This document shows, piece by piece, positions 1 through 11,792 of a stretch of 11,792 nucleotides of DNA. This DNA comes from a virus (lineage: Duplodnaviria > Heunggongvirae > Uroviricota > Caudoviricetes). The notes beneath the pieces were generated by a model, which searched no databases, was not told where the DNA came from, and saw only the letters and a list, made by a program, of their open reading frames with translations. Position 1 is the stretch's first letter, and each line of letters starts with the position of its first letter. The stretch is taken from the IMG/VR virus record IMGVR_UViG_2713896777_000002; one strand, given 5' to 3'. Both the position numbers and the translations under genes were made by a program.

Positions 1-1338
1 ATCCTTTTTCGCCGCCGCCATCAGCGTGTTGTAATCCGCCTGCAGGATTTTCCCGTCTTTCAGTGCCTTGTTCAGTTCTTCCTGACGGGCGGTATATTTC
101 TCCAGCGGCGTCTGCAGCCGTTCGTAAGCCTTCTGCGCCTCTTCGGTATATTTCAGCCGTGACGCTTCGGTATCGCTCTGCTGCTGCGCATTTTTGTCCT
201 GTTGAGTCTGCTGCTCAGCCTTCTTTCGGGCGGCTTCAAGCGCAAGACGGGCCTTTTCACGATCATCCCAGTAACGCGCCCGCGCTTCATCGTTAACAAA
301 ATAATCATCCTTGCGCAGATTCCAGATGTCGTCTGCTTTCTTAAACGCAGCCTCTGCCTTAATCAGCATCTCCTGCGCGGTATCAGGACGACCAATATCC
401 AGCACCGCATCCCACATGGATTTGAAGGCCCGCGCAGTCCTGTCTGCCCAGGTCTCCAGCGTGCCCATGTTCTCTTTCAGGCGGCGGGTCTGGTCATCAA
501 ACCCTTTCGTTGCGGCCTCGTTCGCCGCCTGCAATGCCCCGGCTTCATCGCCGGAACGCTGCAACTGAGCAACATACGCAATCTGCTCCGCCGTCACGTT
601 ATGGAACTGGCGTGCCATCGCCGTCAGCCCCGACGTCGGGTCTGTGGTCAGCTTCCCGAAGGCTTCAGCGACCTTGTCCACCTCCACGCCGGATGCAGAG
701 GAGAAACGCGCCACACTCTGGCTGATGGACGCAATCTGAGCCTCACCGCTTACCCCCGCCTTAACCAGTGCGCTGAGTGACTCGCTGGTCTGGTTAAACG
801 TCAGCCCTGCCGCCTGCCCGGCTCTGGACAGGACCAGCATACGATCTGCCGTCAGTCCCGCCTGATTGCCGGAAAGGACCAGCGTTTTGTTGAAATCGGA
901 CAGGGTTGAGTTGCCCTGATACCAGGCATACGCCAGCGCACCGGTCGCCACCGCCAGCGAGGTGGCCCCCACCATCGGCAGGGTGATCGCACCGGCAAGC
1001 CCCCTGAACATGGGGATCATCCCGCCGAAGGAGTCCTTCACCTGCCCCCCCTGTTGCAGCAGGATCAGCCACGGACTTTGCCCGCCTGCAAGCTGCGTGG
1101 CCACGTCGGTGAACTGTGCAGGCAGCATACGCATGGCGGCTTTATACTGCCCGACGGAAATCCCCGCTTTCTGTGCAGCCAGCGCCTGTCGGCTCAGCGA
1201 CTGTTCAACGACTGCCGCTGTTTTTTTCGCATCACTTTCCGTACCGGAAAAATGACGCCTGACTCTGGCCATCTGCTCGTCAAATCTGGCCGCATCCAGA
1301 CTTAAATCAACGACCAGATCGCCTACCGGTTCAGCCAT
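1..1338 (-). CDS. H: Tail tape measure protein gpH, N-terminal 446 codons; the gene continues beyond the left edge of the window
   Basis: Minus-strand ATG at 1336-1338 sits 2 nt after the T stop (1331-1333). Translation begins MAEPVGD... and the reverse complement of 1-63 reads LKDGKILQADYNTLMAAAKKD, in frame with codon 1-3. Both match lambda gpH as I recall it. No stop before the window edge, so it is absent from the ORF track. Confidence 0.9.
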   Translation of the reverse strand, partial: MAEPVGDLVVDLSLDAARFDEQMARVRRHFSGTESDAKKTAAVVEQSLSRQALAAQKAGISVGQYKAAMRMLPAQFTDVATQLAGGQSPWLILLQQGGQVKDSFGGMIPMFRGLAGAITLPMVGATSLAVATGALAYAWYQGNSTLSDFNKTLVLSGNQAGLTADRMLVLSRAGQAAGLTFNQTSESLSALVKAGVSGEAQIASISQSVARFSSASGVEVDKVAEAFGKLTTDPTSGLTAMARQFHNVTAEQIAYVAQLQRSGDEAGALQAANEAATKGFDDQTRRLKENMGTLETWADRTARAFKSMWDAVLDIGRPDTAQEMLIKAEAAFKKADDIWNLRKDDYFVNDEARARYWDDREKARLALEAARKKAEQQTQQDKNAQQQSDTEASRLKYTEEAQKAYERLQTPLEKYTARQEELNKALKDGKILQADYNTLMAAAKKD

Positions 1339-2169
1339 ACCGGACTCCTCCTGCGATCCCTTCTGATACTGTCATCAGCATTACGTCATCCTCCGTCATG
1401 TCCGCCACATCCGGGGAAGCGGGGATAACTTCATTCCCGTCCGGGCCAAAGCGGACGCCTCCGGCAAGCCCTGCCGCTTTCTGCATCAGCACATCATCTT
1501 CAGGCTCTTCGTCAGCCTCACGCCGGTTCAGCAGACTGAAATCCAGCGGATGCATATCCGGATCGCTGAAAAACAGGCTGAGCACGGTGTACGTCAGCCC
1601 GGAAAAGTGCATATCCAGCAGAACATCATGAAAATAATGGGTACTGTAAAAGCGGTGCCAGTCGGCATACTCCGTGGATGACATCCCGGCAAGCATGGCA
1701 CGCCAGTCGGGTCGCCCCATCTCGCGCGCCAGTTTCAGGGCAAAACTCAGCTCACCGTCGAACACTTTCCCGCAGAAACAGGCTCTGCAGGCCCGGCGTC
1801 CTCTGCCTGTTCAGGGGCATCATTCACCACAAACTCATACATACCGGACAGCCGGTACACCACGTTTTCAGCATGAGAAATTGCCTCTGTGGGCCAGGTG
1901 GTAAGCACTTCCTGCTCAATCTGTTTAACGGCTTCATTCATGGAAGGCTGCTTTGTCTTCTGCGGATGGTTATGCCACAGGGACATCGCCACCACAAAAG
2001 CACCGGTTCTGATGGCGTCTTCCACTGTAAACTTCCGGTTGCTGTCTGACTCCGCCTGTTCTGCCTGCCGTTTCATCAGGGCGAGATGCTCAATACGCTG
2101 CAGGGCTGAAAGTTCAGAAAGCGTGACGGTCACGCCGTTATGTTCAAATGATTCGGTTTTCAGGAACAT
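1331..2169 (-). CDS. T: Tail assembly chaperone gpG-T, made by programmed -1 ribosomal frameshift from G into the T frame at the slippery site near 1765-1771
   Basis: The T-frame ORF (1331-1765, MFDGELSFALKLAREMGRPDWRAML...) overlaps the 3' end of G in the -1 frame and has no ribosome-binding context of its own. The heptamer GGGAAAG is present on the minus strand at 1765-1771, six codons before the G stop. This is the established lambda G/G-T arrangement. Confidence 0.85.
1747..2169 (-). CDS. G: Tail assembly chaperone gpG (140 aa)
   Basis: ORF-track translation MFLKTESFEHNGVTVTLSELSALQRIEHLALMKRQ... matches lambda gpG. ATG at 2167-2169, stop at 1747-1749. Position between V and T fits lambda order. 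Confidence 0.93.
   Translation of the reverse strand: MFLKTESFEHNGVTVTLSELSALQRIEHLALMKRQAEQAESDSNRKFTVEDAIRTGAFVVAMSLWHNHPQKTKQPSMNEAVKQIEQEVLTTWPTEAISHAENVVYRLSGMYEFVVNDAPEQAEDAGPAEPVSAGKCSTVS
1765..1771 (-). other. -1 programmed frameshift slippery heptamer G GGA AAG (G to G-T)
   Basis: Plus strand reads ctttccc at 1765-1771, which is GGGAAAG on the minus strand, inside the G/T overlap. Confidence 0.8.
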
Positions 2170-2184
2170 CGCTGACTCTCCGGA

Positions 2185-2925
2185 TTAACTGTCGGTGACA
2201 GTGATTTCTGCAACCGCAGCAAGTTCACCATTACCGGATACGACCGGAATGTTGACCTTGCCTGCAGCAACACCTTTCACGGTGATGGTCATACCACTGA
2301 CCGACACGGTGGCTTTTGTTTTATCCGCAGACACCGCACGGAAGCTCTTGTCGGTTGCGCCTTCCGGCTGGAATGCCACGGTCAGCGTGGTGCTCTGCCC
2401 TTTCACCACCGAGGTGCTGGCAGGCGTCACGGTCATGCCGGTTGCCGCTGTGACCGTGCTGCGATCTTCTGCCATCGACGGGCGTCCCACATTGGTGACC
2501 TTCACCGTGCGGGTGATCACTTCCTTCGCCGTCACCGCTTTACCGATACTGCTGACCCAGCCACGGAACACATCGACCGTGCCGTTCGGGAAGCGGATTT
2601 TATAGGCACGGGTATCACCTTCATTAAACCACGCCAGCAGCGCCTGCTGCCCCTGCTCTCCGGGCATCCACGCCAGCGTGAAGCTGGTATCTCCGGCTGA
2701 TTTCTGCCCCTGCCCGGTCGCAGTCCAGTCCGCATCTTCATCATCGAGATAGCTGTCGTCATAGGACTCAGCGGTCAGTTCGCCGGGCGTCAGGTCTTTA
2801 ACTTTTGCCAGACGCGACCAGTCAACGTCTGAAAGCGGATTCGCATAAGGGTCACCGCTCCCCTTATAAACCCACAGGGTGGTCCCGGCACCTTTCACCG
2901 GCATTACAGGATTTGGTACAGGCAT
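2185..2925 (-). CDS. V: Major tail tube protein gpV (246 aa)
   Basis: Translation from the ATG at 2923-2925 is [31 protein letters not shown]..., matching lambda gpV. A GAGGA Shine-Dalgarno lies upstream. The ORF-track start at 2955 is an upstream in-frame extension overlapping U and is unlikely to be used. Confidence 0.92.
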
Positions 2926-2932
2926 AGCGTCC

Positions 2933-3328
2933 TCACATTTCATAGGTAATGACATAAGTCAGATCGGCTGAACTCCACAGGCCCGCATCATCGTCGCGTC
3001 GGTAGTCATAGCCACTGGCCACCATACTGGTGATCAACTCTGACAGTGCCGGGATATCGCTCATCACCGGATAAATCCGGGACTCCATCCACGCATCCAG
3101 CTCTGAATCCGGCACCTGAGCAGGCAGGAAAACTTCNATATGCAGCTCCGCCTGCCAGGTATCGCTGTCCAGCTCTTCGCCCGTGTATTCAGCGCCGGTG
3201 AGATAAACGGCAACTGCCGGAAAATCCGCCTCATCAAAAACAGCGGGGCGACCATCAAAAAACGTCGCCCCGGTGTCATGCTTCTCCAGTGCATCCAGTA
3301 CGGCTGCACGGAGTTCAGTATGTTTCAT
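2933..3328 (-). CDS. U: Tail terminator protein gpU (131 aa)
   Basis: Translation [33 protein letters not shown]... matches lambda gpU. ATG at 3326-3328 overlaps the Z stop in an ATGA arrangement. One codon is X because of the ambiguous base at 3137. Confidence 0.92.
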
Positions 3329-3781
3329 CGCTTTATTACCATCCTCAGTTGATGCTGCAGCGCATAGCCCAGCTCTTTCGGAAGACGTTCACGCCGTATC
3401 CGCTCAATATTTTGTTTAAACGCCGTGGTCAGCGGCACCGCCATCGGGATTTTCACCACATCAATGGGGTAACGGTTTTTCCCGGCCACACGCTGCATNA
3501 CATGCCACCGNCCATTTTTCAGTTGCTGAATAAACGCGCCGGGAATACGACGGTTNCCCACCACAAGCACGCTGCCGCCACCTTTCAGGGATGAACGCTG
3601 CCCCTTTTTACGACGCCTGCGTCGGGACAGGACAACCCGCGCATTCCCCAGCTTGATTACGGGCAAATCCCCCCGGTTAACCTTGATTCTGGCCTGCGGA
3701 TTTTTAACCGTGGCCCTTTTCAGCCTGGCCCTTTCCTTTACCAGTTTCCGGCGTACCTTTGTCTCACGGGCAACCTGTGAC
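3325..3781 (-). CDS. Z: Tail completion protein gpZ, C-terminal portion only; the 5' end is lost in the N gap
   Basis: Translation immediately after the gap reads SQVARETKVRRKLVKERARLKRATVKNPQARIKVNRGDLPVIKLGNARVV...LRMVIKR, matching about residues 42-192 of lambda gpZ. Stop at 3325-3327. Three X residues come from ambiguous bases at 3499, 3511 and 3556. Confidence 0.88.
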
Positions 3782-3847
3782 NNNNNNNNNNNNNNNNNNN
3801 NNNNNNNNNNNNNNNNNNNNNNNNNNNNNNNNNNNNNNNNNNNNNNN
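3782..3847. other. Assembly gap: run of 66 N
   Basis: Directly visible as 66 consecutive n characters. Flanked by FII sequence on the high-coordinate side and Z sequence on the low-coordinate side. Confidence 1.
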
Positions 3848-4167
3848 CGCCCAAGCCAGAGATGACAGCTTCCGCCATCATCCGGCGAAATCCGGTCTAT
3901 CCAGAAGTTTTCCTCACCGATGGTCAGCGTGTCTCCACGCCGCAGCTGCCGCACATCATCAGTCCGGACAAACAGGGACGGGCTGGAGCCTTCAACGCGC
4001 ACGCCCTGTCCGGCATAGCTGATATTTTCAGGGTCATCAAAAACACCACGTATCACAGCACCGGACTGCTCACCGGATGTCATGGTGGCTGACGTTCCCA
4101 TGTACCCGCGTATCGTTTCATCGGCGCAGGCAATGGCAGCATCGAACAGGTTATCGAAATCAGCCAC
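3848..4167 (-). CDS. FII: Head-tail connector protein gpFII, N-terminal about 106 codons; the 3' end is lost in the N gap
   Basis: Translation MADFDNLFDAAIACADETIRGYMGTSATMTSGEQSGAVIRGVFDDPENISYAGQGVRVEGSS...SCHLWLG matches lambda gpFII. The start codon is GTG (plus strand cac at 4165-4167), preceded by GGGAGG. Confidence 0.88.
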
Positions 4168-4178
4168 AGCGCCTCCCG

Positions 4179-4574
4179 TTATTGCATTCTGGCCAGGCCA
4201 CGTTCTGTCATTTCGGCTGCCACACCGGCAGAGACACGAAACGCCGTTCCCGGCAGCACAAATGCCACAGGTTCATCCCGCGTGGCGTGAAGTGCATCGG
4301 TATGCAGCGTCACCAGTGCCACAACCGTGACCAGAGCAGCCGTATCAGTCACGGTATCCGTCTGTGCTGATACCACCTCATTTTCATGTCCGGTCAGCGC
4401 ATTTTCCGGGCTGACAGACGTGTCCTGACCGGCTGCGTCATCCGTGTCATCAAGCTCCTCTTCCAGCTCTGCCACACGGAGCGCCAGTTCTTCTTTCGTC
4501 CCCGTCAGGCTGACATCACGGTTCAGTTGTTCACCCAGCGAGCGGAGACGGGCAATCAGTTCATCTTTCGTCAT
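4179..4574 (-). CDS. FI: DNA packaging / head completion protein gpFI (131 aa here)
   Basis: Translation from the ATG at 4572-4574 is MTKDELIARLRSLGEQLNRDVSLTGTKEELALRVAEL..., with C-terminus ...HATRDEPVAFVLPGTAFRVSAGVAAEMTERGLARMQ, matching lambda gpFI. The ORF-track start at 4613 is an upstream extension. The central acidic segment looks divergent and one codon shorter than I recall for lambda. Confidence 0.88.
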   Translation of the reverse strand: MTKDELIARLRSLGEQLNRDVSLTGTKEELALRVAELEEELDDTDDAAGQDTSVSPENALTGHENEVVSAQTDTVTDTAALVTVVALVTLHTDALHATRDEPVAFVLPGTAFRVSAGVAAEMTERGLARMQ

Positions 4575-4615
4575 GGACTCATCCACAGAGAAACAATGGC
4601 CCCGAAGGGCCATGA

Positions 4616-5641
4616 TTACGCCAGTTGTACAGACACGAACTCATCAGGGTCAGCCAGCAGCATCAGCGGTGCTGACTGAATCATGGTGAACTCTCGCGCC
4701 GGATCGCCGGTAGTCACCCAGTTTTTCGGGTAACGGGCAGAGGCGTTAATGCCTTCGCGCTGTGCGTCCGCATCCTGAATACAGCCATAGGTACGCAGAC
4801 CGCGTGCCTGAGTGTTCCCCAGCACCATCGTGTTGTCCGGCAGGAAGTTCTTTTTGACGCCGTTTTCCACGTACTGTCCGGAATACACGACGATGGCCAC
4901 ATCGCCATACATTCCCTTATAAGACACCGCTTTGCCCAGGTCTTTTACCGCTGTCTCCAGCTCGGAATGAGAGCCGCGACGGGTATCCAGCTTATCCCTG
5001 ACGGCTTTGAAGGAACGGAACAGCGCCCATCCTTTCGGATCAAACACGATGATATTCACCACGCCGCTGGCGTTCAGCGCGTAGGCTTCGATATCGTCGG
5101 TCGGGTCATACGTGGACTTGTCACGCTTGCTCCACTCCGTGCCACCGGACTGTGTGATGTTGTTTGCCGCACTGCGGCCCATATCCACCTCAACCGGATC
5201 AAAGGCTTCACCGGTCATGGTGTATTTGCCCTTAAGCACGGCAGAAACTGCCTGCATCTCTTCGACCTGAGCAATGGCCAGCTCTTCGTCTCGCATGTTC
5301 TGCAGGATGATGCGACGGCGGCGGTAAGCCGGGTCCGCCAGATTCTGTGGATCTTCATCCGGCAGGCGACGCAGGGTCATCTGCGGATTCACTTCATGCT
5401 TGGGTTTGACATATCCCGGCGTAAATTCAGAGGTGGAGCCGCCACGGGAGCGGATAACCTCACCGGAAACAATCGGCGAAACGTACAGCGCCATGTTTAC
5501 CAGTCCCGGAATTTGTGAGAGATAGACTTTCTCCGTGGTGAAGGGATAGCTCTCACGGAAAAAGAGACGCAGAAACAGCGGATCAAACTTAAATTTCTGC
5601 TCATTTGCCGCCAGCAGCTGGGCGGTTGTGTACATCGACAT
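4616..5641 (-). CDS. E: Major capsid protein gpE (341 aa)
   Basis: Translation from the ATG at 5639-5641 is MSMYTTAQLLAANEQKFKFDPLFLRLFFRESYPFTTEKVYLSQIPGLVNMALYVSPIVSG..., matching lambda gpE. The 9-codon upstream extension in the ORF track runs into the intergenic hairpin and is unlikely to be real. Confidence 0.93.
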   Translation of the reverse strand: MSMYTTAQLLAANEQKFKFDPLFLRLFFRESYPFTTEKVYLSQIPGLVNMALYVSPIVSGEVIRSRGGSTSEFTPGYVKPKHEVNPQMTLRRLPDEDPQNLADPAYRRRRIILQNMRDEELAIAQVEEMQAVSAVLKGKYTMTGEAFDPVEVDMGRSAANNITQSGGTEWSKRDKSTYDPTDDIEAYALNASGVVNIIVFDPKGWALFRSFKAVRDKLDTRRGSHSELETAVKDLGKAVSYKGMYGDVAIVVYSGQYVENGVKKNFLPDNTMVLGNTQARGLRTYGCIQDADAQREGINASARYPKNWVTTGDPAREFTMIQSAPLMLLADPDEFVSVQLA

Positions 5642-5654
5642 AAAAAAATCCCGT

Positions 5655-5676
5655 AAAAAAAGCCGCACAGGCGGCC
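5655..5676 (-). terminator. Stem-loop (GCCGC-CTGT-GCGGC) followed by a T7 run on the coding strand, between the D stop and the E start; possible partial intrinsic terminator or RNA structure
   Basis: Plus strand 5655-5675 is aaaaaaa gccgc acag gcggc. On the minus-strand transcript this gives GCCGCCUGUGCGGC followed by UUUUUUU, then ACGGGAUUUUUUU and the E start codon. Confidence 0.4.
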
Positions 5677-5696
5677 TTTAGTGATGAAGGGTAAGG

Positions 5697-6029
5697 TTAA
5701 ACGATGCTGATTGCCGTTCCGGCAAACGCGGTCCGTTTTTTCGTCTCATCGCTGGCAGCCTCCGGCCAGAGCACATCCTCATAACGGAACGTGCCGGACT
5801 TGTAGAACGTCAGCGTGGTGCTGGTCTGGTCAGCAGCAACCGCCAGAATGCCAACGGCAGCACCGTCGGTGGTGCCATCCCACGCAACCAGCTTACGGGT
5901 GGCGGTGTCCAGCATCAGCGGGGTCATTGCAGACGCTTTCGCACTCAATCCGCCGGGCGCGGTTGCGGTATGAGCCGGGTCACTGTTGCCCAGCGGCTGG
6001 TAATGGGTAAAGGTTTCTTTGCTCGTCAT
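5697..6029 (-). CDS. D: Capsid decoration protein gpD (110 aa)
   Basis: Translation from the ATG at 6027-6029 is [110 protein letters not shown], matching lambda gpD apart from about four positions as I recall the reference. An AAGGGA Shine-Dalgarno is at suitable spacing. Confidence 0.93.
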
Positions 6030-6038
6030 AAACATCCC

Positions 6039-6644
6039 TTACACTGGTGTGTTCAGCAAATCGTTAACGGCATCAGATGCCGGGTTACCTGCAGCCAGCG
6101 GTGCCGGTGCCCCCTGCATCAGACGATCCAGCGCAGTATCACTGCGCGCCTGTGCACTCTGTGGTGCTGCGGCCAGAATGCGGCGGGCCGTTTCCACGGT
6201 CATACCGGGGGTTTCTGCCAGCACGCGTGCCTGTTCTTCGCGTCCGTGAGCCTCCTCACAGTTGAGGATCCCCATAATGCGGCTGTTTTCTGCCGCAACC
6301 GCTGCGGTGATCTGCGCGTTCACGTCCGGCTGCGCCGCGCTGGCGTTTTCGCCCTCCGTCGCTGGCACCACGTCAGTAACGTCAGCCTGCGAAGCAGTGG
6401 CTGAAACAGTTGTTGATTGAGTCTCTTTGGTCATTCGCCCTCCTGAGAGACGGGATTTACGTGCATCCAGTGCATCACGCATGACGGTGATCGCATCGGT
6501 GCTGTTAACAAGTTCATCAGCCAGTCCGGCATCAATGGCCTCCTGACCGCTGTACACTGCAGCCTCGGTATCCAGCACAGCCTGCACGGACAGGCCGGTA
6601 TATGCCGACACCTTCTGCGCAAACATCCGGCGGGTTGCATCCAT
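6039..6644 (-). CDS. Nu3: Capsid scaffolding protein Nu3 (201 aa), encoded in frame within the 3' part of C
   Basis: Internal ATG at 6642-6644 is in the C reading frame. Translation MDATRRMFAQKVSAYTGLSVQAVLDTEAAVYSGQEAIDAGLADELVNSTDAITVMRDALDARKSRLSGGRMTKETQ...DLLNTPV is 201 aa and shares the C stop at 6039-6041. This matches the lambda C/Nu3 nesting. Confidence 0.85.
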   Translation of the reverse strand: MDATRRMFAQKVSAYTGLSVQAVLDTEAAVYSGQEAIDAGLADELVNSTDAITVMRDALDARKSRLSGGRMTKETQSTTVSATASQADVTDVVPATEGENASAAQPDVNAQITAAVAAENSRIMGILNCEEAHGREEQARVLAETPGMTVETARRILAAAPQSAQARSDTALDRLMQGAPAPLAAGNPASDAVNDLLNTPV

Positions 6645-7338
6645 CCGGGACTGCAGTGTTTCCCGGACATCACCCGGTAGATGGCTGTAGGGGTTGCCAT
6701 CCACCTTATGGCTGCCGCTGTAAATCAGCGTGATTTCCACGCCCTGTTTCTCCAGGGCAGCACCGTAATTACTGTGAGCCATCATGACGCCGATGGAGCC
6801 TGTCCGGGCGGTCTGCGTGACCAGACGCCGGGAGGCGGCGCTGGCAAGCAGCTGACCTGCACTGCAGTTCATGTCGTTGGCCAGCGCCCATACCGGTTTT
6901 ATGTCACGCACACGGGCGATGATGTCAGCACAGTCAAATGCTCCCGCCACCATTCCGCCCGGTGTGTCCATATCGAGCAGAATGCCGTCCACCATCGGGT
7001 CGCTGGCAGCCTGTTGCAGACGGGCGATAATGCCGTTGTAACCGGTCATCCCCGAATACGGCTGCAGCGCCCGCGTCCGGCTGACCAGCGTACCGGACAC
7101 CGGCAGCACGGCGATGCCGTTCATGACCTGATAACTCCGGGCCTGTCGTGGTCCGTCATCATCACCGGATAACGCCAGCGCCGCGGGTGCCTCTCCGGCA
7201 GTCAGGCTGTCGCCGGATACTGCATCCGTCAGGCGGCTGATCCCAAGCTGGCCTGCAAGCGCACAAAAGAAAACCCGCGCATAGGCGGGTTCAAGCATCA
7301 GCGGCTCATTAAAAGCCATGCTGGCAATATGCGGGAGA

Positions 7339-7358
<20 letters not shown>
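6039..7358 (-). CDS. C: Capsid assembly protease / minor capsid protein gpC (439 aa), ClpP/SppA-like serine peptidase fold
   Basis: Translation (V/M)TAELRNLPHIASMAFNEPLMLEPAYARVFFCALAGQLGIS... matches lambda gpC. GTG start at 7356-7358, preceded by AGGAGG at suitable spacing. The start overlaps the B 3' end by 20 nt. The ORF-track 484-aa version is an in-frame upstream extension. Confidence 0.9.
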
Positions 7359-11039
<3,681 letters not shown>

Positions 11040-11762: not shown

Positions 11763-11774
11763 AGGTCGCCGCCC
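11763..11774. other. cosN: the 12-bp cohesive-end sequence (reverse complement of GGGCGGCGACCT), present here in joined form
   Basis: Plus strand 11763-11774 is aggtcgccgccc. The reverse complement of 11751-11792 reads gcgatccgacaggttacg|gggcggcgacctcgcgggttttcg, i.e. lambda right end joined to lambda left end as I recall them. Confidence 0.85.
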
Positions 11775-11792
11775 CGTAACCTGTCGGATCGC

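Follow-up and report, generated by a model that had tools for sequence, protein, structure and literature searches.

What does a structure with the shape of an intrinsic transcription terminator do in the middle of a phage late operon, between the gene for the head decoration protein (D) and the gene for the major capsid protein (E)? The question was raised by a stretch of 11,792 nucleotides from a virus of the Caudoviricetes (IMG/VR record IMGVR_UViG_2713896777_000002), referred to here as the window. Terminators within the late operon are common in lambdoid phages and their roles have been described as unknown, with the stopping of spurious, non-antiterminated transcription and partial termination as the two suggestions made for them (phage L analysis, bioRxiv 10.1101/2020.10.05.325894). 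The D-E site provides a convenient and genetically tractable case in which to distinguish insulation, partial termination, and mRNA stabilisation; full-text literature searches returned no paper directly discussing the D-E spacer.

The explanation that we favour, drawn from the sequence and from established knowledge of lambda and held at a probability of roughly 0.6, is that the element belongs to the lambda late operon as an intrinsic terminator-type hairpin, after which E starts in the ordinary way from a short Shine-Dalgarno (SD) sequence. RNA polymerase lacking the late antiterminator Q would be stopped at the hairpin, Q-modified polymerase would read through it, and the hairpin would persist in the mRNA.

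Genomic context of the D-E spacer

All long open reading frames (ORFs) of the window were located on the minus strand and matched lambda late head and tail genes; the genes matched were Nu1, A, W, B, C/Nu3, D, E, FI, and FII, onward to the start of H. The reverse complement of the window aligned to positions 1-7928 and 8099-11879 of lambda (J02459) at about 98% identity, the best phage records, which are of the lambda type, were 97.9% identical to the whole window, and the D-E region was 98.5% identical to lambda 5826-6370. Records of Stx1a-converting phages matched this region at 99.5%. Gene D (5697..6029, minus strand; 110 aa) was identified as the head decoration protein by its match to the Pfam family HDPD (E = 1e-21) and by the lambda annotation. 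Its start context equals that of lambda D at 5747 in 30/30 bases, and its TAA stop codon occupies positions 5699-5697 on the minus strand. Gene E (4616..5641, minus strand; 341 aa), the major capsid protein, matched the Pfam family Phage_cap_E (E = 2e-70) and begins with an ATG at 5641 on the same strand. The D-E intercistronic spacer comprises the 55 nt between them (5642..5696, minus strand) and, read on the minus strand from 5696 to 5642, is CCTTACCCTTCATCACTAAAGGCCGCCTGTGCGGCTTTTTTTACGGGATTTTTTT; the sequence matches exactly the one given in the preliminary description of this locus, and all of the sub-coordinates given below were verified.

A promoter scan of the whole window returned no sigma-70 promoter-like site on the sense (minus) strand, an absence that, as far as sequence can tell, is consistent with a late operon served by a single promoter. 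Such sites were scarce overall: one was found on both strands together, as compared to 5.2 ± 2.5 expected from shuffles, and that single site was on the other strand.

Some features of the window concern its assembly. A run of 66 N at 3782-3847 stands in for about 167 nt of lambda in which FII ends and, beyond the FII-Z spacer, Z begins, and an apparent FII-Z fusion ORF at 3325-4167 (280 aa) was rejected as an artefact of this run. Single N were present at 3137, 3499, 3511, and 3556, which suggests low-quality sequence nearby. Lambda position 1, the left cohesive end, aligned 18 bases inside the window (about 11774-11792), so that the sequence is continuous across cos; such continuity would be as expected for a prophage or for a circular or concatemeric form, and not for the linear virion genome.

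Structure of the D-E hairpin

On the transcript, the spacer presents in order GCCGC-CUGU-GCGGC, U7, ACGGGA, U7, and the AUG of E. The GC-rich 5-bp stem with its 4-nt loop, the U7 run behind it, and the second U7 run at the E start codon were thus all present as previously described. The core stem consists of five G-C pairs, GCCGC with GCGGC (5' arm 5675-5671, 3' arm 5666-5662), closed by the loop CUGU (5670-5667). Folding with RNAfold, which had been proposed as a check, also predicted the hairpin and added one G.U and three A-U pairs to its stem, for a total of 9 bp. The resulting terminator-type RNA hairpin, AAAGGCCGC-CUGU-GCGGCUUUU, occupies 5658..5679 on the minus strand, and its assignment draws on this fold, on covariation, and on the annotation of homologous sites. 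The first U7 run (5655..5661, minus strand), which would serve as the terminator U-tract, adjoins the stem and follows the last G-C pair with no base in between; the first four of these U are, in addition, able to pair with the AAAG located 5' of the stem. On the opposite strand, the stem is followed only by CCUUUAGU.

The core alone had a predicted folding energy of -9.3 kcal/mol, and the extended 27-nt element one of -12.2 kcal/mol (z = -3.2; 2/200 shuffles as good); for the 55-nt spacer as a whole, RNAfold gave -14.5 kcal/mol (z = -2.0; 8/200 shuffles as good). The hairpin was still predicted within a context of 139 nt. Because that context was itself no more structured than its shuffles (z = +0.4), the hairpin is a local element.

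Three features are expected of an intrinsic terminator, and each was found here: a stable GC-rich stem of about 5-14 bp with a loop of 3-8 nt, a U-run immediately 3' of the stem, and a position clear of ribosomes. With respect to the last, the stop codon of D is 18 nt ahead of the extended stem and 22 nt ahead of the core, a distance at which the hairpin could presumably fold behind a terminating ribosome.

A simple terminator scan of the window did not list the D-E hairpin. Maximal extension of the stem uses four of the seven U and leaves three T in the next 8 bases, under the cut-off of the tool, which is the likely reason for the omission; the miss is a quirk of the tool and no evidence against the feature. 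The top-scoring terminator-like element of the scan was a hairpin inside gene C, at 7271-7292 on the minus strand, with the sequence GAACCCGC-CUAUGC-GCGGGUUU followed by UCUUUUGUGC. It has eight pairs, five of them G-C, and lies about 66 nt into the C coding sequence, just past the B/C overlap.

Nothing in positions 5400-5950 reached an Rfam gathering threshold. The best scores were those of Leu_leader, Afu_514, and isrK (21.2, 19.9, and 16.5 bits, against cut-offs of 50, 39, and 50), and these sub-threshold matches are driven by the terminator hairpin. The weak Leu_leader and isrK matches, both to RNAs that contain terminators, could be taken to mean that the terminator forms the 3' end of a discrete small RNA or of a 3'UTR-type fragment, for example an Hfq-binding one, released from the end of D in lysogens or in late infection. 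A hairpin followed by a U-run is the standard Hfq-binding 3' module, and in EHEC, regulatory RNAs such as StxS arise from terminated transcripts of the late region of lambdoid prophages (PMC7547250). Against such an RNA stand the failure to reach any Rfam gathering score, the lack of a sense-strand promoter-like site in the window, and the sequence 5' of the hairpin, which is not conserved between clades; we consider it very improbable.

Conservation among close relatives of lambda

The same site has been annotated before. In phage 434 (OL657226.1, 6100-6120) and in HK629 (NC_019711.1, 5911-5931) the homologous 21 nt are labelled as a rho-independent terminator, and HK629 has no other annotated terminator in the first 24 kb of its record, the part that holds the structural genes. 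Both labels appear to be sequence-based. Lambda itself has the homologous hairpin, flanked by the same genes and placed about 15-35 nt ahead of the E start at 6135. Nothing substantial differs between the window and lambda there; the differences lie near the start of the spacer, at -54 and -52 from the AUG, and both positions are polymorphic among close relatives.

Among 5426 complete E. coli genomes, 3200 contained the D-E junction, at 4532 places in all. Across 68 distinct close relatives the hairpin, both U-runs, and the GGGA were invariant or nearly so, variation in the stem and U-runs being restricted to rare variants and to changes of one base in U-run length. The spacer as a whole is no less variable in this set than synonymous sites are (24% variable columns against 23-28%), although divergence is too low for the two to be told apart. 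The D-E hairpin is a known and very common element of the lambda family, conserved and not new, and the present analysis has accordingly little discovery value: the element is in the lambda reference, is an annotated terminator, and is carried by prophages in over half of the complete E. coli genomes. The addition is a modest one, namely that a terminator-shaped hairpin ahead of the capsid gene shows compensatory upkeep from E. coli to Pseudomonas prophages and that a second hairpin follows.

Lambda-identical capsid genes (95-100% identity) were also encountered on short contigs in assemblies of unrelated organisms, among them Chromatium, Kitasatospora, Bradyrhizobium, Paenibacillus, Prevotella, and Akkermansia (L007-L022, L039, L041-L054, L056-L059, L062-L063, L065-L067, L071-L072, L075-L077). 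Several of these contigs have names that show about 1x coverage. Their presence is almost certainly due to contamination with lambda DNA.

Covariation beyond lambda

Capsid-gene homologues were collected from species-representative genomes and, with distant homologues as queries, from viral contigs, of which a first scan had given only relatives that were 97-100% identical and useless for covariation. An element was counted under a strict definition (at least five G-C pairs, a loop of 3-6 nt, and T at five or more of the 8 positions that follow the last G-C pair); a looser criterion of at least 5 bp with at least four G-C was dropped for its background rate of 40%.

Under the strict definition, 26 of the 38 distinct loci had a hairpin with an adjoining T-run no more than 100 nt upstream of the capsid gene, against a background of 26 in 1901 sense tiles (1.4%) and of 0.5% in antisense. 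The loci with the element belong to Kluyvera, Enterobacter, Citrobacter, Klebsiella, Trabulsiella, and Erwinia, to marine gammaproteobacterial MAGs, and to a large group of Pseudomonas-type prophages, reaching down to about 40% identity in E. The loci that retain the T-run include high-GC Pseudomonas-type prophages. The hairpin with T-run was missing from 12 of the 38 loci, and in a marine-type clade (L176, L179-L192) the D-like stop codon adjoins the capsid SD with no D-E spacer at all; the element is therefore dispensable for the capsid gene pair.

In an alignment of 30 distinct hairpins, 92.6% of cells were paired as compared to 31-67% in slid controls, a percentage that is inflated because the hairpins aligned had been picked for having a hairpin. 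Loops varied freely (CUGU, CAUC, AGAC, AAAA, UUAU, AACA, UCUA, and others) while stems were kept. Changes on both sides occurred in six of the nine pairs, none of 500 shuffles reached the observed covariation score, and compensatory examples include GGCCAC/GUGGCC (L043) and GGACCGC/GCGGUCC (L172); within this set, preselected for hairpins, pairs were kept by compensatory substitution, as is expected of a structured RNA. The alignment also held 23 G.U or U.G cells. On the complementary strand these would be A.C mismatches, from which it follows that the structure acts in the sense-strand RNA; a role of the inverted repeat at the DNA level or on the antisense strand was ruled out, G.U pairs being tolerated only in sense RNA. 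At the level of comparative sequence, these substitutions demonstrate that the hairpin structure is under selection in the sense-strand RNA. Conservation of the stem among related phages had been named beforehand as a check on the terminator-like reading, with an absence of conservation to count against it. The stem is kept, with covariation, and the geometry is that of a full intrinsic terminator, so the reading as terminator-like stands as a description.

Spacing on the two sides of the hairpin was also compared. Between the last G-C pair and the AUG of the capsid gene there were 17-28 nt (median 20, sd 2.5), with values that include 18, 20, 23, and 24, and every Enterobacterales locus but L043 (18 nt) had exactly 20 nt. 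Between the D-like stop and the hairpin the distance was 2-42 nt (sd 8.2), with a median of 23 nt in the relatives. Since hairpin-to-AUG distances in relatives differ by non-multiples of three, the reading frame is not kept and the spacer is non-coding. For the same reason, a 350-aa version of E started by GTG (4616-5668) was rejected as a mechanical extension of the ORF; the in-frame GTG, at 5668, lies inside the hairpin.

Translation initiation of E

The preliminary description saw no canonical SD before E and suggested that the structure might take part in unusual translation initiation. Closer inspection supported neither claim. The motif ACGGGA (5654-5649, minus strand) lies between the two U7 runs, and its GGGA (5652-5649) is placed 7 nt from the AUG, within the 5-10 nt upstream of the E start in which complementarity to the 3' end of 16S rRNA is expected of an SD. 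Its predicted anti-SD duplex, at -4.1 kcal/mol, is no weaker than those of B (-4.1), nu1 (-3.3), and FI (-3.1); it is also close to the AAGGGA of D, which is predicted to pair at -5.3 kcal/mol. The motif is conserved: Enterobacterales have GGGA or AGGA, and distant relatives have GGAG, GGGAG, or AGGAGA, with predicted anti-SD pairing of the capsid gene in the distant relatives that reaches -7.8 kcal/mol. In the record of phage 434, a 3-nt ribosome-binding site is annotated 8-10 nt before the start of E; by homology, these three bases are the GGA of GGGA. The presence of a leader and of a conserved short SD is at odds with SD-independent or leaderless initiation of E.

The second U7 run (5642..5648, minus strand) is best described as an A/U-rich spacer between SD and AUG, with no conserved U-run. 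In close relatives its length is polymorphic (U6 or U8), and in Kluyvera, Enterobacter, Citrobacter, and related prophages (L024-L036) it is replaced by AAAAATCT. What persists at the E start is A/U-richness and not a U-run.

These observations bear on the possibility that the locus is a translation device for E, in which the U-runs would act as S1-binding enhancers in place of an SD and the hairpin would keep them single-stranded, allowing high-level initiation independent of an SD. U-rich leaders are reportedly enhancers of translation (Boni et al. 1991; Zhang and Deutscher 1992), no other among the 15 late-gene starts compared is as A/U-rich as that of E (0.72), and the distance from hairpin to AUG is tightly kept. 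Yet a short SD is present, well spaced, and conserved up to AGGAGA in distant relatives, the AUG-proximal U7 is lost in many relatives, and the predicted accessibility of the E start (0.54) is unexceptional among late genes. We judge a device of this kind to be improbable. E instead appears, from its sequence, to use ordinary SD-dependent initiation, with a short SD placed in a leader that is open and A/U-rich.

The SD of the next gene, FI (4575-4590 in the window), varies among close relatives, reading GGATGAG here, GGAGGAG in lambda, and GGAGAAG in one close relative (L005).

Proposed termination and read-through in the late operon

Polymerase started at pR' and modified by Q reads through intrinsic terminators over the whole of the late operon, a read-through of terminators that reportedly depends on Q (Roberts and colleagues; Yin, Kaelber and Ebright 2019). 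Placed in this setting, the terminator reading that we favour would run as follows. Polymerase unmodified by Q would terminate at the D-E hairpin, and the capsid gene and everything downstream would be expressed only from Q-modified complexes started at pR'. During lytic growth, Q-modified polymerase would read through the hairpin, in which case the element would not set the D:E ratio transcriptionally. The hairpin would then persist in the finished late mRNA, since it begins 18 nt past the D stop and so is clear of terminating ribosomes. Once there, it would probably block 3'-to-5' exonucleases, shielding the upstream segment that contains D, and would mark the 5' edge of the unstructured, U-rich ribosome-binding site of E, where initiation would depend on the GGGA with help from the open A/U-rich leader. 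We thus infer three roles for the hairpin: termination, read-through, and mRNA stabilisation. A point against an insulator acting on Q-less polymerase is that the window contains no upstream sense-strand promoter-like site to make spurious transcripts.

The element resembles the canonical intrinsic terminators of E. coli that act under Q, such as lambda tR' and those of the downstream late operon, in its GC-rich stem of 5-9 bp, its 4-nt loop, and its U7; it also resembles terminators read through under Q in the A-rich tract 5' of its stem and in its place inside a Q-controlled operon. It differs from canonical terminators in its position, which is not at the end of a transcription unit: it separates two essential genes that are expressed together and lies 20 nt ahead of the start of the most highly expressed one. 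In the P22-like phages (L and P22) there is likewise a predicted Rho-independent terminator near the capsid genes of an antiterminated late operon with a single promoter. The capsid genes there are of another family, and the terminator follows the procapsid module instead of separating decoration and capsid genes.

A terminator at this position could also be leaky for the late complex itself, such that a fixed fraction of transcripts ends after D and the dosage of Nu1 through D is graded against that of E, FI, and the tail genes. The full terminator geometry with its retained U-tract would allow this, and partial termination is among the two roles that specialists suggest for such sites (bioRxiv 10.1101/2020.10.05.325894). 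The stoichiometry of the head points the other way: the head requires no fewer copies of E than of D, and far more of E than of Nu1 through C, so that attenuation before E would be counterproductive. The capsid needs the two in nearly equal number, about 420 copies of D and about 415 of E. For this reason a partial terminator setting the D:E ratio, one of the roles proposed in the preliminary description, is a priori unlikely. It is established, moreover, that Q-modified polymerase resists intrinsic terminators, and relative expression of the lambda late genes is reported to be set by translation initiation and not by mRNA level (Sampson et al. 1988 PNAS). On balance we regard a leaky terminator as unlikely.

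The companion hairpin after E

A second hairpin was found in the E-FI spacer by the terminator scan, at 4596..4613 on the minus strand. It reads AUGGCCC-UUCG-GGGCCAU, is followed by a weak U-rich tail, and folds at a predicted -13.2 kcal/mol (z = -3.5). The E-FI (41 nt) and D-E (55 nt) spacers are the only sizeable ones in this part of the operon, and each contains a stable hairpin. In the distant comparison, 34 of the 38 distinct loci had a GC-rich hairpin behind the capsid gene, as compared to a background of 17.5%.

The two hairpins are not alike in what follows them. A T-run accompanied the post-capsid hairpin in 10 of the 38 loci, that is, in 10 of the 34 that bear a hairpin, whereas an adjoining T-run was found in 26 of the 29 loci that bear a D-E hairpin. 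The D-E element thus appears, from sequence, to be specifically terminator-shaped, and the element after E to be often a plain hairpin.

Intercistronic hairpins that act as decay terminators are known from the stem-loop of the Rhodobacter puf operon and from the REP hairpins in malE-malF. The D-E hairpin shares with these its stability and its position directly 3' of a highly expressed cistron in a polycistronic mRNA, as well as the presence of a second hairpin 3' of the next abundant cistron; unlike the D-E hairpin, puf and REP hairpins have no obligatory U-tract and are not terminators. By this analogy, the D-E hairpin might act purely post-transcriptionally, causing no termination and, together with the hairpin after E, bracketing the two most-needed head genes and prolonging the life of their mRNA. 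The occurrence of a stable hairpin in each of the two sizeable spacers is in keeping with such a role, as is the frequency of the post-capsid hairpin, and several loci without a D-E hairpin have a post-capsid hairpin with a T-rich tail in its stead. The E leader, GGGAUUUUUUU, would in addition fit the preference of RNase E for AU-rich single-stranded RNA, and cleavage there would leave the hairpin at the new 3' end. A barrier to decay needs no U-tract, however, and the difference in T-runs between the two positions points to selection either on termination geometry or on a U-rich E leader. We consider a purely post-transcriptional hairpin possible, at a probability well short of even. The position of hairpins 3' of D and of E would fit a decay-barrier role, which the terminator reading favoured above already includes as a secondary one; the two readings are not exclusive.

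A more speculative extension, which we put forward with considerable doubt, is that the D-E terminator and the hairpin after E form a selected pair of RNA elements bracketing the capsid gene. The terminator would be a checkpoint for Q-dependence that keeps capsid protein strictly off in lysogens, and also a processing or decay boundary that gives the D-ending and E-containing segments separate half-lives; the stoichiometry of D, E, and FI would be set after transcription. If true, this would supply a function for terminators within the late operon, whose roles specialists call unknown.

The placement of terminator-like elements around the capsid gene varied among the distant loci. In L179, L180, L185, L176, and L177 the post-capsid hairpin bears a clear T-run, and several of these loci are without a D-E hairpin. 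In several loci of the latter kind, the terminator-like element follows the decoration and capsid genes as a unit. In L177, a terminator-like hairpin is present at both positions.
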